Source: Candidatus Kaiserbacteria bacterium RIFCSPLOWO2_01_FULL_50_24
GTDB lineage: Bacteria; Patescibacteriota; Minisyncoccia; Phycocordibacterales; UBA2100
DNA: 64,000 nucleotides
NCBI GenBank assembly: GCA_001783335.1
Contig: MFLU01000002.1
Span: 4,948 to 68,947, forward strand
Direction of reading: 5' to 3'
The position numbers and the translations under genes are program-made. Position 1 is the stretch's first letter. The number at the start of each line of letters is the position of its first letter. Under the pieces are notes generated by a model. It saw only the letters and a program-made list of their open reading frames with translations, was not told the origin of the DNA and searched no databases. Of this stretch, positions 2,598 through 58,361 are shown piece after piece.

Positions 2598-3113
2598 ATG
2601 AGCGGTATGAAACACAAGCTTCTAGCTTATAGCGTACAGCCGACAGGAGGTATCACTCTGCGGAAATTTGTTTTTCTGCTGAAAGCTAAAAGCTATAAGC
2701 CACAAGCTACCCATGGGTTCACCTTAATAGAGTTGCTGGTCGTCATTGCTATCATCGGCCTTCTTACATCCCTTACTGTCGTTTCGCTAGGAACCGTGCA
2801 AACGAGAGCGCGCGACGTGCGACGTATGGAAGACGTGTCAACACTCCAAAAAGCGCTAGCACTGTACCAAATCACAACCAACATATATCCAATCTCTGTC
2901 TCCCCTACCACACTAACCGGCACCGACAGCGTTTCAACCGCTCTTATTGGTGCGGGAACGATGGGTGCTATGCCGCTAGACCCCCTCTCTCCGCAATACG
3001 ACTACTCATATAGCTCAAACGCAATTGGCAACAACTATACAATCGCTTTCTGTTTGGAAACCGACTACATACGCAACTACAGTGAGGGATGTGTGAATTC
3101 TGTGTCTCCCTAG
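2598..3113 (+). CDS. Type IV pilin / pseudopilin with a prepilin cleavage motif (G|FTLIELLVVIAIIG)
   Basis: Canonical class III signal with Glu at +5 and a hydrophobic helix. The true start is probably downstream of 2598 (an ATG at 2607 or an in-frame TTG), because the first ATG overlaps a TACAAT -10-like hexamer. Confidence 0.7.
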   Translation: MSGMKHKLLAYSVQPTGGITLRKFVFLLKAKSYKPQATHGFTLIELLVVIAIIGLLTSLTVVSLGTVQTRARDVRRMEDVSTLQKALALYQITTNIYPISVSPTTLTGTDSVSTALIGAGTMGAMPLDPLSPQYDYSYSSNAIGNNYTIAFCLETDYIRNYSEGCVNSVSP

Positions 3114-3361
3114 GGGATCGCTCCGTCGTCCAGCACCACTTTTGCAGTGAGAGTTCTGTTGTGGTACGAAACGCAAACGCAAGCGTTCGTATAACCGGAG
3201 TTACCGAGTACCAAGTGCAAAAGTGGTGCTGGACTCCTCCGCTAAGGTGGTAAATGCCAATTAATTCGTGGAACATCAAAAGTTTTAATTTTACATTGTC
3301 GTTTTTACCTTTTCATTTTTACTTTTTAACTTATCCTGGCCGATAGGATATAATAAGCACT

Positions 3362-3879: not shown

Positions 3880-4055
3880 AAAAGGCACCAAACAAACATT
3901 AAAATTCCAAGCACCAAGCACCAAGCACCAAATTACAAACAATATCTAAATTCTAATTACTAAACACCAAACACAACATGTCGGTTTTGAATTTGTGATT
4001 TCGGTAATTTGAATTTGTTTGGAATTTGGGATTTGTAATTTGTTATTTTCTTCAT
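3880..4055. repeat. Family A palindromic intergenic element, copy 1 (AC-rich arm / GT-rich arm, about 175 bp)
   Basis: AAAATTCCAAGCACCAAGCACCAAATTACAAACAATATCTAAATTCTAATTACTAAACACCAAACAC ... GTTTTGAATTTGTGATTTCGGTAATTTGAATTTGTTTGGAATTTGGGATTTGTAATTTG. Four more copies lie elsewhere in the window. Confidence 0.65.
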
Positions 4056-4099: not shown

Positions 4100-4612
4100 T
4101 TAAAATGCTTGTGCGGTGCTCGCGCGGCACCACATGTAGTGCGCGAGGCCCGTCGCACGCGAACAGCGCGGCACGTCAGGAAGAGATTGCTCTACGTATA
4201 TAACCTCTGGTTCTCGTTTCTGTGGTTCGTATTTTTTTTGAGATTCGTTTGCTACCGCATACATCTGCGCTTTGAAGTTCGCAGATCCGAACTGAACATT
4301 CTCCGCAACCATGCGAGACGCGGCAACTGAAACAACGGCAAACGCAACCGCTTGCCCTGTGACATTCTCTAAAACTGTGTGGGCGCGCGACACATTACGC
4401 GCTACAAAGTTTTTAACGAGAAACCCCATGTCTGGCGGGAAAGAAAAACGCAATTCATTCTTCCACGAGGTATGGCGAACAAATTCCGTGGGTATAGAGT
4501 AGGCGGCACGTCCCAAGGCGCCATCGAATAGGGGCTCATTCAACACGTCTGCGAGAGTAAACAGAGGAATAACAAGTACCAGCGCTACCACACCGCGTGC
4601 TTTCCACTTCAT
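4100..4612 (-). CDS. Hypothetical secreted protein (N-terminal signal peptide)
   Basis: MKWKARGVVALVLVIPLFTLA signal-like N-terminus. No recognisable domain. Confidence 0.4.
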   Translation of the reverse strand: MKWKARGVVALVLVIPLFTLADVLNEPLFDGALGRAAYSIPTEFVRHTSWKNELRFSFPPDMGFLVKNFVARNVSRAHTVLENVTGQAVAFAVVSVAASRMVAENVQFGSANFKAQMYAVANESQKKYEPQKREPEVIYVEQSLPDVPRCSRATGLAHYMWCRASTAQAF

Positions 4613-4657
4613 GAAGACATTATAACACCGACGGACAGAGGCCTCTGGGCGGCGCCT

Positions 4658-6939: not shown

Positions 6940-7063
6940 TAGAGAGGAACAAAATAAGAATATACCATATTCGTATTTTTTCCGAACGCTCCCCTCGAAA
7001 GCTCTGCTTACGAGGGGGTACAAAGAAAGCGTAACGAAAATCTACGCTTTAGCAAATACGGTC

Positions 7064-7327
7064 TTACGCCGTAACTGCATGAGAATATTTCGCAAGTCGC
7101 GATTTCATGCGAGCGGCGGTATTTTTCTTTACGACGCCGCGCTTAGTCGCCTTGTCTATTGCTCCATACGCTTCTGAAAGAAGTGTCGCAGCGGTAGCGT
7201 CGCCTTTTTTCCCAGCATCCGTGAATTCGCGTACCGCCACTTTCATTGCGCGCTTGCGGCGCGCATTAAAAACCGCCTTTCTTTCCGAGGCGCGATGCGC
7301 TTTTTTGGCAGAGCTTGTTTTTGCCAT
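7064..7327 (-). CDS. rpsT: 30S ribosomal protein S20
   Basis: MAKTSSAKKAHRASERK...NARRKRAMK, 87 aa and basic, typical of bS20. Confidence 0.85.
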   Translation of the reverse strand: MAKTSSAKKAHRASERKAVFNARRKRAMKVAVREFTDAGKKGDATAATLLSEAYGAIDKATKRGVVKKNTAARMKSRLAKYSHAVTA

Positions 7328-7948: not shown

Positions 7949-9199
7949 ATGATTCTGTCTTTAAAAAAACTAGTTCCCGCGCCAGTCGTTTTCCTGTACC
8001 ATCTTGCTCTGGTGTTCCTCGCCGCGCTCTACTTTGAATTTCCGTCGCGGCGCATCACCGTAGTCGGCGTAACTGGCACAAAAGGAAAATCAAGTACGAT
8101 AGAGTTCGCGAACGCCGCATTTGAAGCGGCGGGACGAAACACGGCACTCATGAGCACTATACGAACAAAGGTGGGGATGGAGAGCACACGAAATACCAAA
8201 CGCATGACTATGCCGGGAAGGTTTGCCGTTCAGCATTTTTTGAAAAAAGCGCTTGATGCCGGGTGCGACGTCGCGTTTATTGAAATGACGTCGGAGGGAG
8301 CGCGGCAACATCGGCATCGTTTTATTGATTTAAACGCCCTCATTTTCACAAACCTCGCACCGGAGCACATTGAATCGCACGGCTCATATGAGGCATATGC
8401 GGCGGCAAAATTTGAGATAGGACGCGCGCTCGTTCGCTCACACAAGCGTCCGCGCATTATTATCGCAAACGCGGACGACAAAGAGGCGCACCGCTACCTC
8501 CTTCTTTCCGTTGAACACGCGATTCCCTCTTCTCTTTCCGCATTTGGAGCGCATGCGGATGAAGATGAAATGGGCGGCAGTTTCAAGTGGGACGAGACGA
8601 AAATTCGCATCCATTTGCCCGGAGAATTCTCGCTCCAAAACGCAATCCTCGCGGCACTTCTCGCACGCGCTTTTGATATTCGTGCTGAATTTATTCGTGC
8701 CGGGTTTGACGCGCTTAAAAAAATTCCTGGCCGCGCGGAGCGTGTAGAGGAGGGTCAGCCCTTCCTTGTTATAGTTGACTACGCGCACACACCCGACTCC
8801 CTTTCCGCTATCTACAAAACATACGCAAGTAGGAAGAAAATATGCGTACTCGGTGCGACCGGCGGGGGACGCGACACGTGGAAGCGTCCGGTTATGGGTT
8901 CCATTGCCGACGCCGCATGCGAGCACGTTATACTAACGAACGAAGATTCGTACGATGAGAAACCGGAAGATATCGTGACGAGTATCGCAGCAGGAATGAA
9001 AAGAGTGCCGGAAGTTATTGTAGACCGCCACAAAGCGATAGCGCGCGCACTGTCTCTTGCGAAGCCGGGCTACGCCGTCTTGATTACCGGCAAAGGCACT
9101 GACCCGAGCATAGAGGGTCCGCGCGGCACACACATTCCATGGAGCGACGCCGAGGTAGTGCGTGAAGAGTTGCACAAACTTCTGCAAAAGAGCATATAA
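7949..9199 (+). CDS. Mur ligase family protein (MurE-like), membrane-anchored
   Basis: GVTGTKGKSST P-loop of Mur ligases and a DYAHTPDSL motif (the MurE signature is DYAHTPDAL). It has an N-terminal TM helix. The start was chosen just after the ruvA stop. Confidence 0.6.
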   Translation: MILSLKKLVPAPVVFLYHLALVFLAALYFEFPSRRITVVGVTGTKGKSSTIEFANAAFEAAGRNTALMSTIRTKVGMESTRNTKRMTMPGRFAVQHFLKKALDAGCDVAFIEMTSEGARQHRHRFIDLNALIFTNLAPEHIESHGSYEAYAAAKFEIGRALVRSHKRPRIIIANADDKEAHRYLLLSVEHAIPSSLSAFGAHADEDEMGGSFKWDETKIRIHLPGEFSLQNAILAALLARAFDIRAEFIRAGFDALKKIPGRAERVEEGQPFLVIVDYAHTPDSLSAIYKTYASRKKICVLGATGGGRDTWKRPVMGSIADAACEHVILTNEDSYDEKPEDIVTSIAAGMKRVPEVIVDRHKAIARALSLAKPGYAVLITGKGTDPSIEGPRGTHIPWSDAEVVREELHKLLQKSI

Positions 9200-11123: not shown

Positions 11124-11428
11124 CAAAGATGAATAATTTTTAAATTACTTCGCATCACAAAAGTACGGCGCCGGATTCACCACCTAGAGCGGAGGCGCCT
11201 GTCATCCGAGAGAACCCAGCACCAGTGCAAGCACGGTGCGGGGCATGCATCGCGCTGTATTTGCATCCACAACTTCAAGCGGAGGCGGCATTGCTTCGAG
11301 AAGGCCTTGCGCAGCGCGACGGCGCGAGCAGAGCAAATTTTCAGCAGAAAATTATGCGTGCCTTTCGAGAGGCAATGCCGCCAAGCGAGCGACCCCTGTA
11401 TTTGCATTCCACCACCTAAAGCGGGAGA

Positions 11429-11531
11429 GGCGCACCTGTTTGGGAGACTTAACCGTAGCGGAGTCCCGCTCCAGTTTTGCTGAAAGACAAAACTGGAGCG
11501 GGACGTGAGCGGTCTCCCAAACAGGTGCGCC
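11429..11531. repeat. Family D structured element, copy 1 (20 bp perfect closing inverted repeat GGCGCACCTGTTTGGGAGAC / GTCTCCCAAACAGGTGCGCC, conserved TTAACCGTAGCGGAG and GACGTGAGCG internal-loop strands, 40 nt inner hairpin)
   Basis: Read directly. The second copy at 58252-58352 shares the flanks but has a different inner stem sequence. Confidence 0.5.
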
Positions 11532-11545
11532 AACGGAGCGCCCCA

Positions 11546-12823
11546 CTAAATTGCCATCTCAACAGTCACGTAATCGGTTGCGGGTTCGCCGTCGGTTGCG
11601 ACGCACGAGATAGTGAAAACAGTCACACCAGAGAGCGGTACCGTGGACGCGCCCCCTGAAAATCCTGTTTCGTGGAAGCTACCGTCGGGACTCGTTACTA
11701 TGCACGATTCCACGCCTCTTGAATTCCAGAATACTAACGTGCGCGAACCAATGGATACGCGCGCGGGGACGGCCCACACGTGCGCTTCTGGTTCTATAGC
11801 GGGTATCAGTTTTTCCTGCTTCACTTCTTTTTTCGTTTGCTGTAGTGGCTGTAGCACCGGATACACTGCTGTTTGTACTACGGGAAGCGGAGGCGGCGGT
11901 TTGTACCCGCGCCGCTCGCATAAACCATCAAAGAAAGAGCTCGGTATAACATACGTAATGAACGAGCCCGCCCAAGGACGCGATACGCACAAACGTGCGA
12001 CCATACCGCCCTCACCCATCCATGTTCCCGTTTGACCGTAAAATCCGGCCACCTCAAATCCGCGTGTTTCATCCCGTTCGCTGGCGATGGCAGTTGCCCC
12101 CGTGCCGATTTCTTCTATGCGTCCGTAAAGGCCGCTGCCGAGCGACACAGGAGTATCCAATACTCCGGAAGCAAGCGGCGGCTCGGATGAGGACATGTCA
12201 GACTCACTTTCGGTGGCGCGCAAAATTTCTTCACTTACCCCCGATTCCTCGCTGGGCACGTAGGGATCGCTTTGTTCATTGGTAAGCGATCCCATAAGGT
12301 CGCCAACAATGTCTTGCCCACTCGTTTCGCCGAAAGGCGATGTGAGAAGGTTGCTTGCGCCCGGAGAATATATCGCGCACGGATCGGTGGTCGGCGTAGT
12401 CACCTGGTAGTATGAAGGACATAATTGTTGTTGCTGTTGGCTTCCTTGCGATCCCTGCTGCATGAGTTTGTCCAAGACGCCCTTAAGGATATCCATAATC
12501 TCTTTCGGTATGCCGAGAGCCGTCTGTTTACCGTCCAGTCCTTCTGAGCTTATGCCGCGGCAGACACCTGGCGCGCTACTTTTACATATCCCTATCGTTT
12601 TTCTGTCGTTCGTTATATCAACACATGGGATGGCCTGACAAGACACACACCCTGGATCAAAGGGCGAGGGCGTACACTTTCCTGGGTAACAATACTGGGT
12701 TCCACAAAACGCATCTGCTTCCGTAAAAACGGCGTTGGTTGCGTATGGTATGAAAAGAAAACCAGCGGTGAGCAAAATAGCGGCAACCAACACAATACGT
12801 TTGCCATAAAGAAAGCAACTCAT
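11546..12823 (-). CDS. Hypothetical secreted cysteine-rich protein
   Basis: N-terminal TM/signal region (IVLVAAILLTAGFLF), about 12 Cys in the first 100 aa (CGTQYCYPGKCTPSPFDPGCVSCQAIPC), then a Q-rich linker and an acidic, S/T-rich region. Confidence 0.5.
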   Translation of the reverse strand: MSCFLYGKRIVLVAAILLTAGFLFIPYATNAVFTEADAFCGTQYCYPGKCTPSPFDPGCVSCQAIPCVDITNDRKTIGICKSSAPGVCRGISSEGLDGKQTALGIPKEIMDILKGVLDKLMQQGSQGSQQQQQLCPSYYQVTTPTTDPCAIYSPGASNLLTSPFGETSGQDIVGDLMGSLTNEQSDPYVPSEESGVSEEILRATESESDMSSSEPPLASGVLDTPVSLGSGLYGRIEEIGTGATAIASERDETRGFEVAGFYGQTGTWMGEGGMVARLCVSRPWAGSFITYVIPSSFFDGLCERRGYKPPPPLPVVQTAVYPVLQPLQQTKKEVKQEKLIPAIEPEAHVWAVPARVSIGSRTLVFWNSRGVESCIVTSPDGSFHETGFSGGASTVPLSGVTVFTISCVATDGEPATDYVTVEMAI

Positions 12824-15920: not shown

Positions 15921-16090
15921 CATTGGAACCAAACGAACGCTAAAATTCCAAGCACCAAGCACCAAATTACAAACAATATCTAAATTCTAATTACTAAATA
16001 CCAAACACAATATGTTGGTTTTGAATTTGTGATTTTGGTGATTTGAATTTATTTGTAATTTGGAATTTGTTATTTGGATTTGTTTGTGAT
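15921..16090. repeat. Family A palindromic element, copy 2
   Basis: GAACCAAACGAACGCTAAAATTCCAAGCACCAAGCACCAAATTACAAACAATATCTAAATTCTAATTACTAAATACCAAACAC...GTTTTGAATTTGTGATTTTGGTGATTTGAATTTATTTG. Confidence 0.65.
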
Positions 16091-17166: not shown

Positions 17167-17472
17167 GTCAATACGAAGGTCGGTATAACCTGAAATCGTT
17201 GTCTTATTGCGCCTATAGTGCTCAATTCTCAATACCCGGTTGAGCTTCTATCAGTTCCGGTTTCGTCAGAGTTACACTCTCCGACTTTCCTAACGGTCGT
17301 GAAATAAGGAGGGTTGCTGAGAGTAATTCGTGCCCCCCTCAGTTTCGCCACCATACGCGTCTGGTTTTCTTTCGACAAACGTATCGAATTTTGGTATTTC
17401 CGGCATCATATTCAAACCATAACATAAGAGAACGCGGCTTTGTCGTAGTAATTTGTTGTTATAATACAACAC

Positions 17473-19167
17473 ATGGTGCAATTAAGTGATGAAAGAAAAC
17501 AGGATGAGCGCCTGGCAGAGTTGCATAAGAGGGAGGAGGAAAAGCTCGCGGAGATGCTCTCTTCAAAGTACGGCGTGGAGTATGTGGATCTCTCCTCCAA
17601 ATCCATTGATACAGACGCGTTACGCCTCATTCCGGAAAAGGAAGCGCGCGAAGCGGAAATCGCGGCATTCCGCAAAATGAACAAGCGCATTATGGTTGCC
17701 ATGCGCGCGCCAGAGCGACAGGACGCCTTGAGAGCAATACAAAATCTTGAGCGGCTTGGTTATGAGACGCGACGATTCATCGTATCGCGCGCATCACTAG
17801 AGCGCGCGTGGAACCGCTACAAGGACCTTTCGTACGCCACCGAAACCGAAGCTGGCGTATTGACGCTCTCCAACGAAACTATCCAAAAAATGCTTACAAA
17901 GCTGAAAACGCTCCGAGACATCAAGCAGCACATAGACGACAGCATTATGAGTAAAGACCCGCACCGCATATCGCGCGTTCTGGAAATTATCATGTCGGGC
18001 TCACTCGCCCTCGGTGCATCCGACGTACACCTGGAGCCGGAGCAAGAAAACGTGCGCATGCGCTATCGGCTTGATGGCGTTCTCGTAGACGTCCTCATGC
18101 TTGACATCCCGACCTACGCACTCATTTCGAGCCGCATAAAACTCCTCTCTGGCCTAAAACTAAACATCAAACACGCTGCGCAAGACGGTCGTTTTTCCAT
18201 TGTGGTCAACGAGCGGGAAATTGAGATTCGCACCTCCATGCTTCCGGGGGCGTACGCCGAGACCATCGTCATGCGCCTCCTTGATCCGGCAACAATCGGC
18301 CTTCCTATGGAAGAACTTGGGTTTGACAAGTACCTCATGGAAATCCTGAATCGCGAAATTCAAAAACCGAATGGCATGCTCCTCAACACAGGACCGACGG
18401 GGTCGGGAAAAACGACGACTCTCTATGCGTTTTTGCGCAAAGTGCACAAGCCAGAGATTAAAATCGTTACCATAGAAGACCCGATTGAATACCACCTTCC
18501 GGGCATCGTTCAAACACAGGTATCGCGCGACTACACCTTCGCGCTCGGCCTGCGCTCTACGCTCCGCCAAGACCCAGACATCATCATGGTCGGCGAGATA
18601 CGCGACGCGGAGGTTGCCTCAACTGCCGTCCACGCATCCTTGACCGGCCATCTCGTATTCTCCACGCTCCACACCAATGATGCGGCAGGAGCGTTTCCGC
18701 GACTCATTGACATGGGCGTGTCCGCAGACATTTTAGGTGCGGCAATCACCGTTGCCATGGCACAGCGTCTAGTGCGGCGGCTTTGCCCGAAGTGCCGCGA
18801 GGCGCAGCCCATAACGGGCGCGAGCGCAAAACTCTTAGCGCCCCTCCTTACCAACATCCCGCATCCAGAAGACATGCCGCAAAATCGGGACACGATGTGG
18901 GTCGCGAAAGGATGCGACGCGTGCGGCGGCATAGGCTACAAGGGACGCGTCGCGGTCATTGAGGTAATTCTCATGGACAGGGCGATAGAAGAAATAGTAC
19001 GCAAAACTTCTAGCGAGCGAGAAATTTGGCGCGCGTCGCGTGCCCAGAAAATCCGCCGAATGGCGCAAGACGGCGCGGTGAAGGTGCTGAAGGGTGTAAC
19101 TTCAGTAGAAGAGCTCAGTCGTGTCGTTGATTTGACTAATGAGGTGATGCTGGAAACGTTGGCGTAG
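17473..19167 (+). CDS. pilB: Type IV pilus assembly ATPase PilB (GspE family)
   Basis: GspE N1 domain, Walker A LNTGPTGSGKTTTLYAFL, Asp and His boxes, and tetracysteine CPKC...CDACGG. Confidence 0.85.
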   Translation: MVQLSDERKQDERLAELHKREEEKLAEMLSSKYGVEYVDLSSKSIDTDALRLIPEKEAREAEIAAFRKMNKRIMVAMRAPERQDALRAIQNLERLGYETRRFIVSRASLERAWNRYKDLSYATETEAGVLTLSNETIQKMLTKLKTLRDIKQHIDDSIMSKDPHRISRVLEIIMSGSLALGASDVHLEPEQENVRMRYRLDGVLVDVLMLDIPTYALISSRIKLLSGLKLNIKHAAQDGRFSIVVNEREIEIRTSMLPGAYAETIVMRLLDPATIGLPMEELGFDKYLMEILNREIQKPNGMLLNTGPTGSGKTTTLYAFLRKVHKPEIKIVTIEDPIEYHLPGIVQTQVSRDYTFALGLRSTLRQDPDIIMVGEIRDAEVASTAVHASLTGHLVFSTLHTNDAAGAFPRLIDMGVSADILGAAITVAMAQRLVRRLCPKCREAQPITGASAKLLAPLLTNIPHPEDMPQNRDTMWVAKGCDACGGIGYKGRVAVIEVILMDRAIEEIVRKTSSEREIWRASRAQKIRRMAQDGAVKVLKGVTSVEELSRVVDLTNEVMLETLA

Positions 19168-19224
19168 TAAACTATGTGCTCCACCGTAGGGGATAATCGT
19201 AGTTCAAAACACAAAGTACAGACT

Positions 19225-19395
19225 TCTCAAAAAATCCAAATTACAAATCCCAAACTCCAAACAAATTCAAATCACCGAAATCACAAATTCAAAACAGACA
19301 TGTCGTGTTTGGTATTTAGAAATTGGAATTTAGATATTGTTTGTGATTTGGTGCTTGGTGCTTGGAATTTTAGCGTTCGTTTGGTTCCTGTGTTT
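19225..19395. repeat. Family A palindromic element, copy 3 (opposite orientation)
   Basis: ...CCAAATTACAAATCCCAAACTCCAAACAAATTCAAATCACCGAAATCACAAATTCAAAAC...TTGGTGCTTGGTGCTTGGAATTTTAGCGTTCGTTTGGTTCC. It starts right after the pilB stop codon. Confidence 0.65.
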
Positions 19396-20574: not shown

Positions 20575-20705
20575 CAGTTAAAAAGTTAAAAGGTAAAAAC
20601 TAAAAATGAAAAACGACAGTTAAAAAGTCAAGGCCGGAGAAGCGTCAGAAAACTTTTAATTTTGCATTGTCGTTTTTAGATTTTCATTTTTAACTTTTAC
20701 TTTTT
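20575..20705. repeat. Family B palindromic element immediately upstream of ruvB
   Basis: GTTAAAAAGTTAAAAGGTAAAAACTAAAAATGAAAAACGACAGTT...AACTTTTAATTTTGCATTGTCGTTTTTAGATTTTCATTTTTAACTTTTACTTTTT. Confidence 0.55.
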
Positions 20706-28605: not shown

Positions 28606-28680
28606 TCCCCTGCAAGGCCTTGCCTTGCCATATACTAAACTCTCCCCTGCAAGGCCTTGCCTTGCCATATACTAAACTCC
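28606..28680. repeat. Family G tandem direct repeat (two units of CCCCTGCAAGGCCTTGCCTTGCCATATACTAAACTC)
   Basis: Read directly. A related CAAGGCCTTGCCTTGCCATATAC occurs at 58183-58210. Confidence 0.6.
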
Positions 28681-28734
28681 AGGGGTTTAACCTTCAGAGA
28701 ACGCGGTTTTGCATTTCCACCTTCCTCAGCGAGC

Positions 28735-28845
28735 GTAGGCGTCATTGCCCTAAGAAGGCCTTGTGCAGCGCGGCGGCGCGAGCAGAGCAAATTTTCAGCA
28801 GAAAATTATGCGTGCCTTTCGAGGGGCAATATCTCCAAGCGAGCG
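28735..28845. repeat. Family E structured element (CATTGCC...GCGCGAGCAGAGCAAATTTTCAGCAGAAAATTATGCGTGCCTTTCGAG.GGCAAT)
   Basis: Near-identical to 11285-11395. It contains an AAATTTTC/GAAAATT hairpin and a CATTGCC/GGCAATG closing stem. Confidence 0.5.
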
Positions 28846-28850
28846 CCCTC

Positions 28851-29945
28851 CTACCTGTTCAGCGGCATCACGAGATAGAGAAACGAGCTGTCAGAGACGC
28901 CTTTAATAACAAGGGGCTTCCCGACACCCGAAAACGACAACGTGACGCTGTCAGACTCAATGGAAGGAAGACATTCAGCGACGTAGCCAATGTGAAAATT
29001 TATATCCAAATCCTCACCGGAGAGCGCCGCGTCCAAAGTGTCAGACATTTCCCCAATATCAGCATCACGCGCGGTCATGGAAAAAACTTTTCGCTTCGGA
29101 TACAGATGAAACCCGACGCTCTGATCGCTTCCGGAGAAAATACGTGCCTTTTTGAGAATATCGGAAAAATCGCTCTTAAGAAGAGTCGCTTCCGTTTCGA
29201 ACGATTTAGGTATTATTTCTTTATAATTCGGAAATACCCCATCAATAACACGAGACATGAATCGCACCCCACCTCCTGAAATAGTCATCTGCGACTCTTC
29301 AAGAACGACAGACACTTCATCGGCATGAATTCTCTCAAGAATATAACTCAATTCAAGCGCGTGTTTTAGCGGGATAAGTACTTCCCCCTCTCCTTCCCTC
29401 ACGGACCTTTGTACCGTTTTCTCGGCTAAACGGAACGAATCAGTAGCAACAGTAATGAGTGACTTTCCGGTTGTGGTGAGGTACACACTTCCTATTTCCG
29501 GACGAATTACAGAAGTTGACGCGGCATACGAAACTGACTGAATACTCGCGAGAAGATTTATCCTCTCTATCTGCACACCCTTCTTTTTACTCGGTGAAAA
29601 TTCCGGAAATTCGCTGTCTGAAACTGTTTTTATAAGTGTTTTTGTATGTTTTGACTCAACGCATAAATTTTCACCATCCTTTTTAAGAATGACTTTTTCT
29701 GTTTGTATCGACCTGATTGTTTGCGAGAGAATAGATGCAGAAACAGCAACTTTACCTTTTTCTATAATTTCTCCACCAATAACACACTCAACTCCTGCTT
29801 CAAGATTTGTGGCTGATAATAAAATAATATCCGATACTTTTAAAACAACACAAGATAATACAGGAAGAGTTTCTTTTTTACCAGTAACACGTTCTATAAT
29901 TGAGAGTAATGAGATAAGTAAATTTTTTGGAACTATAACTTTCAT
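28851..29945 (-). CDS. dnaN: DNA polymerase III beta subunit (sliding clamp)
   Basis: 364 aa with a MKVIVPKNLLISLLSIIERVTGKKETLPVLSCVVLKV N-terminus typical of DnaN. It lies downstream of dnaA. Confidence 0.9.
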   Translation of the reverse strand: MKVIVPKNLLISLLSIIERVTGKKETLPVLSCVVLKVSDIILLSATNLEAGVECVIGGEIIEKGKVAVSASILSQTIRSIQTEKVILKKDGENLCVESKHTKTLIKTVSDSEFPEFSPSKKKGVQIERINLLASIQSVSYAASTSVIRPEIGSVYLTTTGKSLITVATDSFRLAEKTVQRSVREGEGEVLIPLKHALELSYILERIHADEVSVVLEESQMTISGGGVRFMSRVIDGVFPNYKEIIPKSFETEATLLKSDFSDILKKARIFSGSDQSVGFHLYPKRKVFSMTARDADIGEMSDTLDAALSGEDLDINFHIGYVAECLPSIESDSVTLSFSGVGKPLVIKGVSDSSFLYLVMPLNR

Positions 29946-33315: not shown

Positions 33316-33485
33316 GAAACCAAGCGAACGCTGAAATTCCAAGCACCAAGCACCAAATTACAAACAATATCTAAATTACAATTACTAAATAAAAAACACG
33401 GCCCGTTTTGAATTTGTTATTTTGGTGATTCGAATTTGTTTGGGATTTGTAGTTTGGATTTTTTTGGGATGTTTGTGTTTTGTGA
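33316..33485. repeat. Family A palindromic element, copy 4 (between yidC and jag)
   Basis: AACCAAGCGAACGCTGAAATTCCAAGCACCAAGCACCAAATTACAAACAATATCTAAATTACAATTACTAAATA...GTTTTGAATTTGTTATTTTGGTGATTCGAATTTGTTTGGG. Confidence 0.65.
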
Positions 33486-34004: not shown

Positions 34005-34163
34005 ACCCCCCACGCCTTTGGGGGTAAACCACCCAGAGCGTAGGAGTTCAGCCCCAACTTTGCACTCGGTACTCTGTAGCTCTGGTTATACGAACGCATG
34101 CGTTTGTGTTCCGTATCACAACAAAACTCTCACTGCAAAATTGGGGCCGGACGACGGAGCGAC

Positions 34164-34553
34164 TCACTGGGCCTGCCGCAAACTGCGTATCGCGTCCAAG
34201 TTTAAAATATCGGGATTTATCTGGTAGAGAATGATATATACCGCGATGAGGAGGAGGAGCCCCAATGCAACATCTTGCAATATCTCACGCCCCTTTTGTT
34301 TTGACGGCCATAAGTCACTCGCAATATAGAGGTATCCGGCCCACGCAATGCGCATGACGGCGAGAATCGCCCCGACACTTATCGCTATTTTGAACGCGTT
34401 GTTGATAAACGTCGCAAGATCTTGATTGGGATTCACTATCTGTGAGAGCGCCGGTGACAGATTGTCATCTGTCAAATTGAACACCGCCTGATACATGCCG
34501 GCTGTGTAGAGGGAGTGTATATAGTCACGAAATTTTTTGTAGATATTGGCCAT
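34164..34553 (-). CDS. Small two-TM membrane protein, possible VirB2/TrbC-like component of the T4SS-like locus
   Basis: 129 aa with two hydrophobic helices (FKIAISVGAILAVMRIAWAGYLYI and VALGLLLLIAVYIILYQI). The assignment rests on size, topology and context only. Confidence 0.3.
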   Translation of the reverse strand: MANIYKKFRDYIHSLYTAGMYQAVFNLTDDNLSPALSQIVNPNQDLATFINNAFKIAISVGAILAVMRIAWAGYLYIASDLWPSKQKGREILQDVALGLLLLIAVYIILYQINPDILNLDAIRSLRQAQ

Positions 34554-34561
34554 ACTTATTG

Positions 34562-34775
34562 TCAGTTGACGACAGAATGTAAAAATAAAACATCAAAAAT
34601 CAAAATAACAGTTTAAAATCTAAAATGGCCGCCCATGAGCGCAGAATAACATGTTGCAGTTTTGCATTGCATGCCCCGTACCAAAATCAGCAGGTATCCT
34701 CATATTATTGAAGTGGTCGAATGTTGAGATTTTTGGTGCGGGGTAATTTTTCATTTTGAAATTTACATTTTTATT
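34562..34775. repeat. Family B palindromic element with a nested CCCCGTACCAAAATC / GATTTTTGGTGCGGGG inverted repeat
   Basis: Read directly between two T4SS-locus genes. Confidence 0.55.
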
Positions 34776-36062
34776 TTAGCGTAGCGAGAGTACCCACAGA
34801 GACCAGTCCTGCGCGTTGCGGAACGCAAGGTACGCGCCGTCGTCGCTCACAACGGGTACTTCAGCGTCAATCAAGAAGCCCTCCTCAATACCCGGATCAA
34901 ATAATTGTTTCGCTGTGCCGAGTTCTACATTTATTTCCCACCACACATCGCTTGTGTGCGTTTCGCCCCGATACCAGCGATTCAAAAACTCGCTATCCGT
35001 GTTTCCGTGTGGCACGGCACAGTATGCCACGCTCCCACTTGGCGCGAACGCACACTTCTCTGCAATGGTGGAAAGTGGCAATAAGGCAGGTTCATCCACA
35101 CTGCTTTTCTGCACATACAGCGAGAGTTTTCCTTTCTCGGACGCGCCATAGAGGATTGCGGACGAAGACGCGTGGATCGCTATGGTGAGTCCCGGTATGT
35201 TTCGTACGACAGGGACAATTTTGTTTGGAGTGGTAGCGTCGTATGCGTGCCCAACCACGTTGTCTGCCGGGCGTGTTGCCACGATAATGCGGTCTTTGTT
35301 TGCATAGTAAACAGTCCAGTCGCGCGTTCCAAACGTAGCGATACGTTTTTTATTCCCCCCGTTCGCGCTCGCCAACATGAGCGCCACGCCACCGTTTCCG
35401 TCTGGAGCAAGGTACGAGATTGTGTCACCCGAAGGCGAGATCGCAAGCGAGAGGATACGCTCTTCCAGCTCGTTCGAGACGAGGGATTTTGCGCTTGATG
35501 AGGAGATAACAACTCCAGTTTTTGTAATCAGCGTTCCGTCCTCAATACCACGGAGAAATACACGCTCTCCGGCAAACAACGCCTCTTTTACCCACGGCAC
35601 AAGCGTGTTGGTCAGGCGCGAGACGGCGCGTGTTCCCACATGGGCCTCTAGTACGTTTCCCGTAGCGCGTTCCACAAAACGGAGCGTTGTTGTCCCGCCA
35701 GCGGTCGTAAAAGCCATGCCTGCCGTTGGAAGCGCGCTTGCATGCCATAGCCGCGGGCGACTCGTCTCGTTCTCTTCCTCTCTAAAAAACACGAACGGCT
35801 GGACGGCTTTCTTTGTGGCGTCCTGTACGCTACGCCAGAGTGGCACGGAAGGGATGGAGTGTACGAGATTTAGGTAGGTGCTGCCTCCGGAGGATGTAAA
35901 CTCCGGAGCGCTTATATCAAGCCCTCGCGCTGTATCAATGATCCGTTGGGACCTCGTCTCGCTTTTCAGGAAAAAATACCACCAGCCAAGGAGTCCGAGT
36001 GATACGACTATAATGCCAATGAGGGCTATGCGAACGGACTTTTGTATTGTGTTGTTGTGCAT
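34776..36062 (-). CDS. Membrane-anchored hypothetical protein with a predicted beta-propeller-like (TolB-like) periplasmic or extracellular domain
   Basis: N-terminal TM helix (IALIGIIVVSLGLLGWWYFF). Repeated S/G/D-rich beta-strand segments (ISPSGDTISYLAPDGNGGVALM...). Confidence 0.45.
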   Translation of the reverse strand: MHNNTIQKSVRIALIGIIVVSLGLLGWWYFFLKSETRSQRIIDTARGLDISAPEFTSSGGSTYLNLVHSIPSVPLWRSVQDATKKAVQPFVFFREEENETSRPRLWHASALPTAGMAFTTAGGTTTLRFVERATGNVLEAHVGTRAVSRLTNTLVPWVKEALFAGERVFLRGIEDGTLITKTGVVISSSSAKSLVSNELEERILSLAISPSGDTISYLAPDGNGGVALMLASANGGNKKRIATFGTRDWTVYYANKDRIIVATRPADNVVGHAYDATTPNKIVPVVRNIPGLTIAIHASSSAILYGASEKGKLSLYVQKSSVDEPALLPLSTIAEKCAFAPSGSVAYCAVPHGNTDSEFLNRWYRGETHTSDVWWEINVELGTAKQLFDPGIEEGFLIDAEVPVVSDDGAYLAFRNAQDWSLWVLSLR

Positions 36063-36084
36063 ACGCGGCTAGTGAGTTAGTACA

Positions 36085-36485
36085 AGTTAAAAAGTAAAAA
36101 TGAAAAGGTAAAAATTACAGTTAAAAGTTAAAAGCTACTGGCGACGTAAGCAAAGCTTTCCGGCAGCACTCGTTCGGAAACGGAAAAATGAATTTTCCCG
36201 TTTCGCTCACTCGCTTGCCGATAAGCAAAGCTTTCCGGCAGCGCTCGTTCGGAAACGGAAAAATGAATTTTCCCGTTTCGCTCACTCGCTTGCCGGTAGA
36301 GCGAGCGAAATGTAAAAGTACTCTTTTGCATTTCCGAGCCGAGCCTGCCCGAACGACCGTTCGGTCGGGCGGGGAGCCAGAAACCGGCGCGCCGGTTTAC
36401 ATCCACGTCGAGGGTACTCTTTGACCTAACTTTTAATTTTCCATTGTCGTTTTTCATTTTTCACTTTTAGTTTTTAACTGTCGGG
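36085..36485. repeat. Composite element: a family B palindrome split by about 285 bp carrying a two-unit 63 bp tandem repeat and GC-rich palindromes
   Basis: Left arm at 36085-36135 and right arm at 36420-36482. The insert has the unit TAAGCAAAGCTTTCCGGCAGC[A/G]CTCGTTCGGAAACGGAAAAATGAATTTTCCCGTTTCGCTCACTCGCTTGCCG twice, plus CCGAACGACCGTTCGG and AACCGGCGCGCCGGTT. Confidence 0.6.
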
Positions 36486-36491
36486 CACACT

Positions 36492-37538
36492 CTACTCATT
36501 ACCAAAAAAGCCACTTTGGGTCGTCGGCTCAAATGTTATATTCCACGTGTTCCGCGCATTTTGCAGCCAATTTACGGCATGGCTGAATATAAGTTCTATC
36601 TGCGCCACCACCTGAGCTCCTTCCGTGCGTATAGTAATTTGATTTTGTTCGCTACCTGGCACGAGCGAGCGATTTACGCCCCAGTTGAATATATAGTCAT
36701 TCTGTTCTCTCGCCGTGTCTGCGTAATAGGGAGTGGCGGTGAAGGTTGCCTCTCGGTCGTCAAAAAAAGCGTTCTCTTGTATAGCCGCATTGGTGAGCAC
36801 TCCAAAAAGCGGATGTTCATGGTATAGCAAAAGCACGGGTTCGTATGAAGAAATGCGCTCTGATGCGTAGCCGCGATATGTATCGTCCGACGATGTTACC
36901 GTTACTGAAAGGATGTGTGAGCCGAATAACGGTGGAGTTGGCACTTCCACAATATTTTTCCCGCGTCCCGAAACGCTAATGAGCACATGGTTGTTCCTGC
37001 GCCACGTGTAGGTAAGTTCGTTCGACTCCAGTGTGCTGCCGTTTGCGCGGCGGAATCGTGTCAGCGCTTCTGCGCGCATGGTCACTCCTGCCGATGGAAG
37101 CGCGCGTCCGCGAAAAAATGGCGGCACGTATGAGTTCGCGCTCCAATGGAGGTCAACCTCCGTGGGGCGTATCGTAACAAGTCCGACGGCGCGCGCCCCG
37201 TCCGGTGAAATCGCGGCCACCTCCACCGACACACTCGTCCCACTCGCTCCAAGCGTGACCGTAGCGCTTCGCACGCCGGTTCCCGATGTAATCCGTTTCC
37301 CATTCGCACTCCACGATATGGCGCTTTCTCCAAGCTCAAGAACGTTTCCGATGACACGGAGAGTAACGATCTCAAATGGCGCCGGGTACGCGGGGTCAAC
37401 TTCAATAGATAACGGATCGACGGGAGAGAGGAGCGTTTGTCCATGTGCGGCAAGCGGTATCATACATACCGTCATGATAAGCAGTCGAAAACACCACATG
37501 CTCGTTGTCATATATTTAATGTTCGGCAGGAGCGCCAC
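36492..37538 (-). CDS. Hypothetical secreted protein (signal peptide, beta-rich)
   Basis: Hydrophobic N-terminal helix (MWCFRLLIMTVCMIPLAAHGQ). It overlaps the virB4-like gene by 23 nt and is probably co-transcribed. Confidence 0.45.
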   Translation of the reverse strand: MALLPNIKYMTTSMWCFRLLIMTVCMIPLAAHGQTLLSPVDPLSIEVDPAYPAPFEIVTLRVIGNVLELGESAISWSANGKRITSGTGVRSATVTLGASGTSVSVEVAAISPDGARAVGLVTIRPTEVDLHWSANSYVPPFFRGRALPSAGVTMRAEALTRFRRANGSTLESNELTYTWRRNNHVLISVSGRGKNIVEVPTPPLFGSHILSVTVTSSDDTYRGYASERISSYEPVLLLYHEHPLFGVLTNAAIQENAFFDDREATFTATPYYADTAREQNDYIFNWGVNRSLVPGSEQNQITIRTEGAQVVAQIELIFSHAVNWLQNARNTWNITFEPTTQSGFFGNE

Positions 37539-39645
37539 CCAGAGGGCTCTGTCCGTCGGGACCTTGTCCCGTTGTTATTGCGGGAGTTTTGTCAGCAAGA
37601 CCGGGCATTGTCGTAGGTGTCTGATTGACGGTGGACGGCACTTCCAGCTGTTGGGCGGAAGGAGGGGGCGGAGGAGAGACCTCTCCTTGTGTAGGCGCCT
37701 TCTGTGTAGCGACTATGGGGCGCATCGGTTCGGGCGGCTCCGGCGCATCGGTTGTGGGCGGCATAGGTGCGCTGGCAGGAACCTCAACTGCCCGGGAGAG
37801 TTGAGGCTGGTTATCGAGCCCAAATTCTTCGGTGGCGAGACGTTCTTGCTTTGCTTTTTTAATGGCAAGTATTTGCGATGGGTCGGAGGTAATTATCTGG
37901 TCTTCCGTGTAGGAAGCTATAATCTTTATGGCGACATGTTTTAACCCTGCGAAGAATATCCCCTCCCCCACATCAGACTCCAAGAGCAGGTATTTCTCCT
38001 CATCTGAAAGTTTGAATGTGTTTTGTACGAGATCTACCGATGTTGGCGATTGCCGCAATAGTATCTGAATAGACGAGTTCGTTATCATAGGGATTCCATA
38101 GGGAGAGTTCAAGAAGTCAGACACGTCTTGCGTTATGGTAGAAATGCCAAGATAGTATTTACGTCCGCGTTTTGCGATTGAAAATAGAAATGATGCAGTG
38201 TCTTCCGAGCGCATCATCCACCATGCCTCGTCTATGACCAAGAGGCGCTTGCGTAGCTCTTTCCGCACGGTATTCCAAATGTGGTGCGTGATGATGTACA
38301 TGGCTACGGGTTTCAGGTCGTCTTCCATGTCGCGCACTGAAAAAACTACCAATCTTTTATTCATGTCTACATTCGTCGGGCGATTCATAAAGCCGGACCA
38401 CGTTCCCTTGGTGTACTTTGAAAGGCGCTGTACCAAGGACTCCGAACCCTCCATGCCGGAGAGCACGAGCTCAAAGTCGGAAAGGAGCGGCGGCTCTATG
38501 GCCGCGAAGTTCGCGTCCGCGCTGATGTCCTTGAGCGCATACGTTTCTGTGATTGCCTTATCAATGACCGCGTCTTCTTCCGGCGTGAGGCCTCCTAGCA
38601 TGATGCGGAAGAGTCCGACGAGCGTAATAATGTTGTTGCGTAGGACGTCTGAAGGATTCTCATCCTCACGCGGAATGGGCAGGTCAAATGGATTGATATG
38701 GTGTTCCGAAGAAAGAGAAATGTTGAAGTAGCGTCCGCCCACCGTCTCTGCCAAATATTCGTATTCGCGCTCCGGGTCTATGACGATTACTTCAGTGTCA
38801 AACATGAGCGAGCGGAGAATTTCTAGTTTGGTGGCGTATGATTTTCCGGCGCCGGATTTTGCGAAAGTGACCGAGTTATAATTCTCCAAACTAAATCTAT
38901 CAAAAAGAATGAGCGACGAATTGTGGCGGTTGATGCCAAACAGGATTCCCCTATTCGAGGTTAGGTCGAATGAAATGAACGGGAACACAGAGGAAAGCGG
39001 AGCCGAATTTAGCTTCGTGTGCACTTCAAGCTCGTCGGACGCTATCGGAATGGTGCTCCTGAATCCTTGCTCTTGTTGAAAAAGCGCCGGACGGATGTAC
39101 ACGAGGCGCGACTCAAGGACGGATCGTATTTCTGATTCCACCTTGTCTATTTCCTCACGCGTTGCGCCGTATATCGTGAGATAGAGCCCGACTTCAAAGA
39201 TGCGTTCTTGCGCCTGCTGAAGCGAGTCGCGCAATTGCTCAAGGTCGGCGTAGGCAGTGTCTAGTTGGGGGTTGCGCACCATTCCCTTCTCTTCTCGCGC
39301 CGCTATTTGGCTTTGCACCTCAGCCACCTTTTTTTGGAATTTTCGCAGTACCTCCGTCGTGTCCATGGGATGTATAAAAATGGAAATATCCAAAACCTTG
39401 TCCATGTTGATGATGGGAGAAAACCATCCCGTAGTGAGAAAGCGCGGATACGATATAACAAAAAACGTACGAGCAATCTTTTCTCCGAGGTCAAGCTCGC
39501 GCGGGCTGACGCGGAGCGCATGTGGCGCGATGACATCTTGGAGGTCAAGGACACCAGTGCGGTAGATTTCTTCCGGCAACACGGGTAAAACCTGTGCCAC
39601 AGGCAATTTCTTTTTTCCGAACGGAAGAAAGTCCAATAAAGCCAT
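37516..39645 (-). CDS. virB4: VirB4/TrbE/CagE-family type IV secretion ATPase
   Basis: Walker A FAKSGAGKSY and a Walker B in the VirB4-typical DEAW context (RLLVIDEAWWMM). 709 aa with a C-terminal Pro-rich tail. Confidence 0.8.
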   Translation of the reverse strand: MALLDFLPFGKKKLPVAQVLPVLPEEIYRTGVLDLQDVIAPHALRVSPRELDLGEKIARTFFVISYPRFLTTGWFSPIINMDKVLDISIFIHPMDTTEVLRKFQKKVAEVQSQIAAREEKGMVRNPQLDTAYADLEQLRDSLQQAQERIFEVGLYLTIYGATREEIDKVESEIRSVLESRLVYIRPALFQQEQGFRSTIPIASDELEVHTKLNSAPLSSVFPFISFDLTSNRGILFGINRHNSSLILFDRFSLENYNSVTFAKSGAGKSYATKLEILRSLMFDTEVIVIDPEREYEYLAETVGGRYFNISLSSEHHINPFDLPIPREDENPSDVLRNNIITLVGLFRIMLGGLTPEEDAVIDKAITETYALKDISADANFAAIEPPLLSDFELVLSGMEGSESLVQRLSKYTKGTWSGFMNRPTNVDMNKRLVVFSVRDMEDDLKPVAMYIITHHIWNTVRKELRKRLLVIDEAWWMMRSEDTASFLFSIAKRGRKYYLGISTITQDVSDFLNSPYGIPMITNSSIQILLRQSPTSVDLVQNTFKLSDEEKYLLLESDVGEGIFFAGLKHVAIKIIASYTEDQIITSDPSQILAIKKAKQERLATEEFGLDNQPQLSRAVEVPASAPMPPTTDAPEPPEPMRPIVATQKAPTQGEVSPPPPPSAQQLEVPSTVNQTPTTMPGLADKTPAITTGQGPDGQSPLGGAPAEH

Positions 39646-39662
39646 AGTTTAAATCGTAGTTG

Positions 39663-40325
39663 CTACGTCCCTTGATTTACTAAAGACACCGGCTTTCCCT
39701 CTTCGCCGGGGTTAAAGAGTTTATACAGGAGCTCTATTGCTTCTTCTGTTCCAAGTTGTACGGTGCGCACGCCGGTTCTGACGAGCCCCTGTTGGACTAT
39801 CCCGATGCGCTGTTCAAGTTGTGAGACCTGTTCTTCAAACGTGCGGCTTTTCTCTTCCTCACTCGCTGCTTTTTGGAATGGAAGCATGTTTGCCACACCA
39901 CGGCGTGTGACGATAGGCGCTGGCGCATAGGGTACGACCACGAAGAAATTCTTTGTCATAACGTTAGCGGCCTCGGTAAAACTTTTTATGAATTCTATAT
40001 ATTCTCGTATCTGTATGCGCATGAGATCGTCCAACTGACTCTTATATGCCTCCTCGAGTGTTGCGATGTACGGACGAATGTCCAACATGCGCGATTGCAC
40101 GAAGATTTGGACGGAAAAATCCAGAGAGTTCAAGAAATTCTGGAATTGCAGAATGAACGCGGTCTGTTCGTCTTCCGACTTTAGGGCAAAATTGAGTGAT
40201 GAGGCAAGGAGTATTGCGCGCATGCTTCCGTCCTTTAAAATCATCACGCCGTCGCGCACTTCGCGCACAGGAACGAAATCCTGTGTTGATTTGTTGCGTA
40301 CTCTAAGATTTGAGAGCGTGTTCAT
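39663..40325 (-). CDS. Hypothetical protein of the T4SS-like locus (immediately upstream of virB4)
   Basis: 220 aa, soluble. No family recognised. Confidence 0.4.
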   Translation of the reverse strand: MNTLSNLRVRNKSTQDFVPVREVRDGVMILKDGSMRAILLASSLNFALKSEDEQTAFILQFQNFLNSLDFSVQIFVQSRMLDIRPYIATLEEAYKSQLDDLMRIQIREYIEFIKSFTEAANVMTKNFFVVVPYAPAPIVTRRGVANMLPFQKAASEEEKSRTFEEQVSQLEQRIGIVQQGLVRTGVRTVQLGTEEAIELLYKLFNPGEEGKPVSLVNQGT

Positions 40326-40334
40326 AACCAGTCA

Positions 40335-40515: not shown

Positions 40516-40538
40516 AACTGTTACTATCTACTATAAAT

Positions 40539-42261: not shown

Positions 42262-42274
42262 ACCCCGTCAGTGA

Positions 42275-42475: not shown

Positions 42476-42496
42476 CGGAACACAGTCGCGTGCTTA

Positions 42497-46527: not shown

Positions 46528-46558
46528 AATCCGCTATGAGTTCCTTGTGTTATTCATA

Positions 46559-49124: not shown

Positions 49125-49364
49125 GCGAGCGAAGCGTAGCTTCGCAAGGCCGGAGGCGCGTCGGCGCCGAGGCGGGATCGCGCAATTCGCCAGCAGGCGA
49201 ATATGCGTGACAGACCGCGAGGCGGGTGAGGCGTGCCGGGGGCACGCCGCAAGACCTTCTGAGGTATTTTGGAGCACGTAGTGCGAACAAAATATCCAGA
49301 AGGTATACTGATCCTGTAAGGATCGACGGGCTCCGAGCGGAAGCGAGGAGAACCGGTGGTCGAG

Positions 49365-57952: not shown

Positions 57953-58251
57953 ACAGATTCATTTTCTGCCGAAAATGTTCGAGCGAAGCGAGATTACATT
58001 TTCGAGCATCCATGCATCATTTTGCAGTTTGCATGGTCTGCAAAATGGTGCTGGGCAATTTGCAACGACAACCACTTTTGACATAAAACGATTGTACCAT
58101 CTTACTGGTATGCGCCGAGAATGCCCAGCGCTTGTGCGCGGGGATCGACTGGCGGTCCGTTTTTACTTGGTGATTTGTGTCCATGGCAAGGCCTTGCCTT
58201 GCCATATACAGACACACTGGCAATTCTGCATCCACCACCCTAAGTGGAGGA

Positions 58252-58352
58252 GGCGCACCCGCTTGGGAGACTTAATCGTAGCGGAGCCCAGCACCACTTT
58301 TTGTACACAAAAAGTGGTGCTGGACGTGAGCGGTCTCCCAAGCAGGTGCGCC
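58252..58352. repeat. Family D structured element, copy 2 (closing inverted repeat GGCGCACCCGCTTGGGAGAC / GTCTCCCAAGCAGGTGCGCC, with a different inner hairpin CCCAGCACCACTTTTTGT-ACA-CAAAAAGTGGTGCTGG)
   Basis: Read directly. It shares TTAATCGTAGCGGAG and GACGTGAGCG internal-loop strands with copy 1. Confidence 0.5.
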
Positions 58353-58361
58353 GACGGAGCG

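Follow-up and report, generated by a model that had tools for sequence, protein, structure and literature searches.

Is the structured element of about 100 nucleotides seen at 11429-11531, and again at 58252-58352, a functional RNA, or is it a repeat that spreads as DNA? The first-pass annotation had left both readings side by side. We addressed the question in the window, that is, the whole stretch of 64,000 nucleotides that was analysed, and in related contigs. The host is a Candidatus Kaiserbacteria (CPR/Patescibacteria) from groundwater metagenomes, with a GC content of about 51%. The window carries housekeeping genes, two type IV pilus clusters and one T4SS-like cluster. A Pfam scan of approximately 45 of its ORFs found no transposase or integrase. 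A second contig, L021, encodes proteins with the locus-tag prefix of the window genome, and repeats are the only sequence common to L021 and the window. Therefore, L021 was taken as another region of the same genome.

Anatomy and placement of the Family D units

In the direction of the upstream gene, a Family D unit starts 0-8 nucleotides after the stop codon and consists of a flank L, a hairpin module and a flank R. The L consensus is (GGGG)CGCTCCGTYG. R reads CTCCGCT..AGGTGGTGGATGCAAATACAG, also written CTCCGCT..AGGTGGTGGA, and is followed by a tail, TGCAAATACAG or TGCAGAATTGCCA. The conserved stretch exceeds the closing stems on both sides and totals about 145-150 nucleotides. Inspection of copies 1 and 2, of unit c3 and of the folds revealed no conserved complementarity of L with R or with the internal loops. 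The units of the window and their parts are the following.

11396..11545, minus strand: unit c1-1 (copy 1 with its flanks); L, TGGGGCGCTCCGTTG, at 11531-11545; R and tail at 11396-11428
11429-11448 / 11512-11531, minus strand: outer 20-bp stem of c1-1; its core stem is at 11463-11479 / 11488-11504
Within c1-1, minus strand: nested elements L2, CGCTCACG, and R2, CTCCGCTACGGTTAA
11255..11395, minus strand: unit c1-2, the tandem neighbor of c1-1; L', GGGTCGCTCGCTTGG, at 11381-11395; R' and tail at 11255-11285
11286-11380, minus strand: type 2 hairpin module of c1-2, comprising the mini-hairpin P2 (loop C-TGCT-G) and the hairpin P3 (GCGCCGTCGCGC)
11173..11254, minus strand: unit c1-3, degenerate; type 3 body at 11196-11254, including TGGTGCTGGG; R'', CCTCCGCTCTAGGTGGTGAATCC, at 11173-11195
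58218..58361, minus strand: unit c2 (copy 2 with its flanks); L, CGCTCCGTCG, at 58352-58361; R and tail at 58218-58251
58252-58271 / 58333-58352, minus strand: outer stem of c2; its core stem is at 58288-58304 / 58307-58323
3114..3261, plus strand: unit c3; L, GGGATCGCTCCGTCG, at 3114-3128; R at 3234-3261; pilin-like gene 2598-3113 (TAG stop) upstream
3128-3146 / 3216-3234, plus strand: core stem of c3, 19 bp, enclosing a 69-nucleotide loop module
34023..34163, minus strand: unit c4; L at 34152-34163; R at 34023-34046; T4SS-pilin-like gene 34164-34553 (TGA stop) upstream
34134-34151 / 34047-34064, minus strand: core stem of c4, with a 70-nucleotide loop of about 87% identity to the c3 loop
28705..28850, minus strand: unit c6; L, GAGGGCGCTCGCTTGG, at 28835-28850; R at 28705-28740; dnaN (28851-29945, TAG stop) upstream
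about 28744-28830, minus strand: type 2 module of c6, about 90% identical to that of c1-2
49155..49202, minus strand: possible distant relative, with P2 (C-TGCT-G loop) and P3 (TCGGCGCCGACGCGCC); no co-oriented gene upstream

Unit c1-1 begins immediately 3′ of the TAG stop (11546-11548) of the gene for a 425-aa protein, and the L flank of c2 lies directly 3′ of the TAA stop (58362-58364) of the last gene of the type IV pilus operon. The degenerate unit c1-3 matches positions 1607-1660 of L021 at 92.6%.

The first-pass annotation had described a family of two copies. Both are real, and what it had missed are the units at 34023-34163 and 28705-28850 and the two tandem units at 11173-11395. Its larger third relative, at 3120-3240, indeed has the same outer flanks and core stem, in the orientation opposite to that of the two copies. 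The 20-bp closing repeat, given as perfect in both, is perfect in copy 1 (11429-11531) and pairs at 19 of 20 positions in copy 2 (58252-58352). The internal-loop sequences are common to both copies as described. The inner hairpins, thought to differ in sequence, proved to be homologous: 14 of their 17 positions are identical and the three differences are fully compensated, the inner stem being of 17 bp in copy 1 and a perfect 17 bp in copy 2.

In the window, Family D amounts to seven units at five loci, and two further loci were found on other contigs of the same genome. The portion of the genome examined, about 85 kb, contains seven loci and at least 12 units. The first-pass annotation had suggested a flank search and a covariance model. 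The L+R flank pattern gave four matches in the window, as compared to none in 100 shuffles, and exposed the fourth copy, 34023-34163. An R-flank profile detected seven R sites in the window and three in L021, which carries an array (c5) 94% identical to copy 1. The model, built on the composite subtype, recovered c1, c2 and c5, then c3 (42 bits) and c4 (17 bits), and no new member in 233 kb. The rpoC locus, with an exact L flank and a new hairpin type, was found via a contig diverging inside the dnaN unit. Scanning the GTDB species representatives with the exact flanks returned one match, inside a Hyphomicrobium nrdR gene, which was judged to be due to chance. In the JGI metagenomes, the same scan returned eight loci; L021 was the sole real member, the others being chance matches in GC-rich coding sequence. 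Neither scan brought up another genome with the family. The literature that we searched describes no such elements for Kaiserbacteria or Parcubacteria.

At all seven loci, the unit is located 3′ of a stop codon and oriented in the sense of the upstream gene. The seven upstream genes are a pilin-like gene, that of the 425-aa secreted protein, dnaN, a T4SS-type pilin gene, the last gene of the T4P operon, pilC and rpoC. The hairpin foot is found 9-20 nucleotides past the stop codon (at most 14 in five of the six loci measured). TAG ends 19 of 52 genes and is not rare in this genome; therefore, stop-codon bias gives no inference. Read-through of the stop codon into a coding extension was rejected: the c1 frame stays open for 118 codons past TAG, the frame of c2 relative to the element is a different one and stops after 29 codons, and the c1 read-through translation has no protein homologues.

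The orientation and stop-codon distance, fixed at seven of seven loci, favor a selected cis-acting 3′-UTR RNA. A partner, protein or RNA, would then bind to L, R and the P2 C-WGCU-G tetraloop, with the variable stems as mere scaffolds, and pilus, secretion and replication genes would be controlled by the element in mRNA stability or in translation. The presence of several pilin and pilus genes among the hosts points in the same direction, whereas dnaN and rpoC, which are also hosts, count against it. Taking into account the pairing data and the comparison between species given below, we regard such an RNA as unlikely.

Modules, nesting and stem pairing

The same L/R frame holds at least four hairpin modules. 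The types distinguished are listed below.

T1: the composite first reported; c1, c2 and c5
T1b: the core stem of T1 around a 69-70-nucleotide loop; c3 and c4
T2: c1-2, c6 and a third copy in contig L031
T3: a body that is not a hairpin; c1-3 and c5-3
T4: the hairpin type found after rpoC

The outer 20-bp hairpin of T1 encloses CGCTCACG, the core hairpin and CTCCGCTACGRTTAA in its loop, the two sequences being a shortened L and a shortened R. Because L2 and R2 resemble L and R, T1 can be described as a small unit nested in a unit. Two loci, c1 and c5, are tandem arrays, in which the units follow each other head-to-tail in one orientation. At the array junction, the R tail (...ATACAG) abuts the next L (TGGGGCGCTCC). 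The modularity proposed at first sight is strongly supported by interchangeable modules in one L/R frame, nesting, tandems, dispersed copies, assembly breaks inside the units, and modules that occur elsewhere in other species.

The exchange of modules is also visible between species. Nine further Kaiserbacteria-like genomes have the same gene order in the vicinity of the T4P operon and tpiA, and the 475-aa protein of the window shares 69-76% identity with its orthologues in them. At the site orthologous to copy 2, five to six of these nine species carry related elements, with modules sometimes swapped. An L/R-like flanked hairpin is present in L012, L015, L025, L026 (where it is minimal, 16 nucleotides) and L030. 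L028 has a complex hairpin insert, and L014, L027 and L029 have 33-41 nucleotides without any element. L012 and L025 have a common loop module on very different outer stems. In L025 and L030, the stem is partly common and the first loop hairpin differs. Finally, L030 carries a T2-like module, which in the window genome is found at other loci. Since the relatives keep the flanks and vary the modules, the frame appears to be old at the copy 2 site, with a hairpin content that turns over. For a cis-acting RNA, these data cut both ways: at one site, different species retain the P2 tetraloop and flanks resembling L and R with covarying stems, but the element is absent from the orthologous site in three of the nine relatives.

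RNA folding of copies 1 and 2 gave energies of -86.7 and -84.4 kcal/mol, respectively, whereas dinucleotide shuffles average about -48 (z = -9.6 and -9.5). Stem pairing is maintained. In the core stem of five copies, 80 of 86 pairs are Watson-Crick, four are G-T pairs and two are mismatches, with three positions changed on both sides. In the P2 mini-hairpin, the C-WGCU-G loop is conserved and six of the seven pairs switch between AT-rich and GC-rich among paralogues and other species. The conserved unpaired segments and the variable but always-paired helix pointed out in the first-pass annotation are therefore real and display genuine compensatory changes.

The two strands behave alike. Over 11 hairpins, G-U pairs account for 15 of 376 pairs on one strand versus 16 of 377 on the other (4%), and the energies are similar on both. 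A gene-sense G-U bias hinted at by a first count on the core stem disappeared over these 11 hairpins. The stems are almost pure Watson-Crick DNA palindromes without strand asymmetry. Template switching within quasi-palindromes can produce concerted changes of both arms in one step. Because the stems are near-perfect palindromes, show no strand asymmetry and could change by such one-step switching, covariation alone is no proof of an RNA function. The equality of sense and antisense in folding energy and G-U content, together with the palindromic stems, argues against a cis-acting RNA, as do the degenerate tandem copies, the nesting and the assembly breaks, which are typical of repeats. The R flank can form a small hairpin with G-U pairs on the gene-sense strand only, which weakly favors the RNA. 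As guides, the stem arms had no matches outside the elements in the window and related loci.

Rfam gave no match in support of an RNA either. In the window, only three tRNAs pass the gathering threshold; in E-value mode, the elements match only microRNA-precursor models, far below threshold. Since no Rfam family reaches the gathering threshold, known ribozymes, riboswitches and HEARO were rejected. The IS605/TnpB omega-RNA, also named as a candidate at the outset, was rejected as well, with no tnpB or iscB gene upstream at any locus. Of the functional RNA or DNA structure initially proposed, the compensated pairing stands. A discrete RNA gene is disfavored by the lack of an Rfam match, equal folding of both strands and the 4% of G-U pairs; nor could a unit promoter be recognised by eye.

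Possible traces of mobility and neighboring repeats

Five of 20 same-species contigs end inside a Family D unit and one switches locus inside a T2 module. Such breaks and switches at the units are typical of multi-copy repeats. Contig L031 (k141_1837926, sample ERZ4903072) tracks the reference to the middle of the T2 module after dnaN. Beyond this switch point, its positions 2681-3105 enter a different locus that ends at rpoC; in this region, Family D arrays converge and two type 3 bodies are inverted relative to each other. The switch reflects a chimera of the assembly or else a true rearrangement via the repeat. Family D is presumed to be mobile. Against this, contigs of the same species that cover the c1, c2 or c6 loci show no differences at these loci, although they come from several samples. 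No empty L-R site was found in about 85 kb (window, L021 and L001), nor any consistent target-site duplication; only short direct repeats were seen, at variable offsets.

We also considered a foldback MITE, in which the arms would be terminal inverted repeats acted upon by a DDE transposase in trans and L/R a preferred target duplicated at insertion. The 10-mer CCCAGCACCA speaks for this scheme, as at least seven different hairpins have it at their foot and it occurs nine times versus 0.33 expected. Short direct repeats also flank many hairpins: CTCCG (c3, c2 and c5), CTCGCCA (L012) and GCTCGC (L026). However, the distance of these repeats from the stems varies and many of them are imperfect; no empty target was found, and the window contains no transposase. 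Moreover, the conserved ends are outside the inverted repeats, with different stems in the same flanks, which is the reverse of a TIR element. A TIR-type MITE fails on the same grounds: L and R are not mutual inverted repeats, the stems differ by module and no fixed target duplication is seen. A core-type hairpin within an insertion in tpiA, whose 5′ end is uninterrupted in other species, is a further point in favor of the scheme, which overall we consider very unlikely. The insertion is as follows.

57953..58083, minus strand: insert in the 5′ end of tpiA, with a decayed core-type hairpin (CCCAGCACCATTTTGCA...TGCAAAATGATGCATGG)

The insert separates the ancestral start, MSKVVVVAN, from the start now in use, MIDKTTIVANW. 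At 57953-58099 on the minus strand, a leaderless-type promoter, TGGTACAAT, and the ancestral MSKVVVVAN (matching MSKVILVANWKMN in L012) precede the insert of about 130 nucleotides, which includes the decayed CCCAGCACCA hairpin and an in-frame stop, the MIDKTTIVANW start being downstream. The motif TGNTAYAAT was observed 5-8 nucleotides before the start codon at 4610-4627 (minus strand), 17457-17475 (plus strand) and 58082-58099 (minus strand), three window matches versus 0.46 expected, and also at the tpiA starts of L012, L014, L015 and L027. Its placement suggests leaderless mRNAs in the clade.

Several other structured sequences were noted. CCAGCACCA is found at 3130, 3224, 11216, 41199, 41487, 58046, 58288, 58315 and 62565 (nine versus 0.33 expected). 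In eight of the nine cases it is at the foot of a long hairpin, including the non-Family-D hairpins 41201-41335 and 62475-62572; the ninth, at 11216, is in the non-hairpin T3 body of c1-3. A-rich inverted repeats (aaaagtaaaaatgaaaa...) occur at 42282-42465, 20581-20705, 49369-49493 and about 3270-3330, and in L021 at 605-787 and 8217-8406. At least three copies are just 5′ of gene starts (3362, 20706 and 49499), and copy 42282-42465 has 92-94% identity to L021. A further family of about 130-160 nucleotides (CACCAAGCACCAAATTACAAA...), with copies 87-95% identical, is found at 3916-4049, 15950-16086, 19206-19363, 33341-33449 and 48434-48560, and in L021 at 7005-7162. A small hairpin repeat, TATATGGCAAGGCAAGGCCTTGC, has three copies on the minus strand (28612-28634, 28649-28671 and 58186-58208), each a few tens of nucleotides downstream of a Family D unit.

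The arm CCCGCACACTTACTT is common to the hairpins at 41342-41632 and at 5681-5760 of L001, the latter in the PilB-PilC spacer just past the window end. At 41342-41632, within a gene-free stretch of 630 nucleotides, one arm has two possible partners, giving alternative structures. A strongly structured region of 1.1 kb without genes extends over 48393-49498 (z = -9.6 for 48900-49345), with an 80-nucleotide direct repeat and the P2/P3-like module at 49155-49202; ORF 48830-49252, which has no Pfam match, is probably spurious. Many ORFs without a Pfam family were also seen in the T4SS-like cluster (34164-48392), which comprises the T4SS pilin (34164-34553), a VirB4/TraG-type ATPase (37516-39645) and PrgI (40539-41042).

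Family D among known systems

Family D resembles intrinsic terminators in its GC-containing hairpins, its location at the ends of transcription units and its gene orientation. It departs from them in its 60-90-nucleotide loops, its nested hairpins and its conserved flanks common to the loci. A CTCCTCCGCT-type sequence follows the hairpins, with no T runs. Because no U-tract follows, Family D is not a canonical intrinsic terminator, and this candidate was rejected.

Integron attC sites share with Family D a structure conserved while the sequence varies, a position immediately 3′ of an ORF, a fixed orientation and arrays. In contrast, Family D has neither the R''/R' core sites (RYYYAAC/GTTRRRY) nor cassette ORFs, and is scattered among housekeeping genes. 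With L and R not complementary, no GTTRRRY core and no integrase in the window, attC was rejected.

BOX elements of Streptococcus pneumoniae and the ERIC/IRU sequences of enterobacteria are modular intergenic repeats of about 100-150 nucleotides that form long stem-loops in transcripts. Family D shares this modular or mosaic intergenic nature, this size and the folding into long stem-loops. However, BOX A and C pair together, whereas in Family D L and R remain unpaired and the hairpin is the variable part.

TIGR arrays in CPR bacteria consist of tandem units with variable yet consistently palindromic closing stems; in TIGR-Tas arrays, box C/D motifs frame two loop spacers of 8-12 nucleotides and a Tas gene is adjacent (PMC12045711). 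Here, the loops contain no RUGAUGA/CUGA and do not show the layout with 8-12-nucleotide spacers, no Tas (Nop-domain) gene is nearby, the neighbors being pilin genes, dnaN and similar genes, and the units are dispersed at gene ends, so that a TIGR-Tas array was rejected.

The closest parallel is with REPs, intergenic palindromes with a GTAG-type tetranucleotide 5′ of the stem that is recognised by RAYTs (PMC8266576). Like REP/BIME sequences, Family D units are short multi-copy intergenic palindromes, often just past stop codons, occurring singly or as tandem mosaics with conserved linkers; the paired stems are kept, and G(T/G)AG is found a few nucleotides 5′ of many stems. On the antisense strand, GTAG is 2-6 nucleotides 5′ of the stem in the inner units of c1, c2 and c5, in c4 and in c6, the tetranucleotide of c3, c1-2 and the outer units being GGAG. 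E. coli REPs within 15 nucleotides of the stop codon impede terminating ribosomes, according to Liang et al. (2015) as cited in PMC12306157, and the Family D foot, within about 15 nucleotides of the stop codon, would be placed likewise (PMC8266576; PMC12306157). Differences are also clear. The hairpins of Family D are longer overall, at 36-107 nucleotides: the cores of c1, c2 and c5 (36-42) fall within the 20-50 of a REP palindrome and the other modules (93-107) exceed it. Several unrelated module types share one non-complementary L/R frame. REP/BIME sequences number hundreds of copies per genome, and the seven loci and at least 12 units of Family D come from about 85 kb. The arrays are head-to-tail, not alternating as REP and iREP, and units nest in each other's loops. 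Finally, GTAG is not invariant, no RAYT is linked and the host is a CPR bacterium.

Overall, Family D is closer to intergenic repeats of the REP/BIME type than to an independent gene for a functional RNA, and appears comparable to repeats of the REP/BIME, BOX or ERIC type. On balance, it is probably a REP/BIME-like mosaic repeat that forms hairpins at 3′ ends and is spread and reshuffled as DNA. Once transcribed, the hairpins would mark the 3′ ends of transcription units, in termination or as a barrier to 3′-exonucleases. Because they start within about 15 nucleotides of the stop codon, they may also hinder terminating ribosomes, as reported for E. coli REPs in the work cited above. Spread and reshuffling could proceed by recombination or gene conversion between copies, or through a putative hairpin-recognising enzyme, and the arms might be kept perfectly complementary by template-switch correction within the palindromes or by strong selection. 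The G(T/G)AG and the CGCT on both sides of the hairpins may recall the recognition of REPs by RAYTs (PMC8266576); such an enzymatic step is speculative, since no Y1 gene is tied to this genome.

Another reading would have the modules behave as cassettes, cut at CGCT/GGAG by an enzyme acting on single-strand hairpins (a Y1/HUH RAYT or IS200-type transposase, or an integron-like recombinase), with module exchange, loop nesting and arrays as the products. CGCT does occur within 0-9 nucleotides on both sides of nearly every hairpin, outer or nested, and the antisense GTAG/GGAG is positioned as in REPs (PMC8266576). Patescibacteria commonly have Y1_Tnp genes, including one in the relative L029. But neither the genome nor the repeats could be connected with a Y1 gene, GTAG varies, array units are direct instead of alternating as in BIMEs, and neither attC-type complementary core sites nor an integrase were found. 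This makes the cassette scheme highly improbable. The Y1 gene of L029 (8147-8455) is a truncated IS200-type transposase gene of 102 aa, which keeps the HUH motif and misses the region of the catalytic Tyr. Patescibacteria have many full-length Y1 homologues of about 147 aa, most of which are found on contigs of less than 2 kb.

A broader proposal, which we hold to be quite unlikely, is that L/R constitute a docking frame at gene 3′ ends, where palindromic modules would be written, exchanged and nested by a putative HUH-type or template-switching mechanism. Family D would then represent a Kaiserbacteria-wide system of hairpin cassettes tuning termination, translation termination or mRNA life for pilus, secretion and core replication and transcription genes, in organisms with otherwise minimal regulation.

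CPR/Patescibacteria genomes are usually called small and compact. Here, several families of structured repeats swell the intergenic regions, which within the T4P operon reach 100-420 nucleotides in the window genome versus 0-60 in most relatives. In practical terms, Family D repeats break and mis-join metagenome assemblies of their host. Returning to the REP/BIME-like reading, the layout of Family D is unusual in its non-pairing conserved flanks, its swappable nested perfect hairpins and its tight spacing to the stop codon. If a hairpin-specific enzyme mobilises these units, REP/RAYT-like biology would be extended to a new phylum. With an effect of the hairpins on termination or on ribosomes that terminate, Family D would provide a cheap regulatory layer for pilus and secretion genes of importance to an episymbiotic lifestyle.
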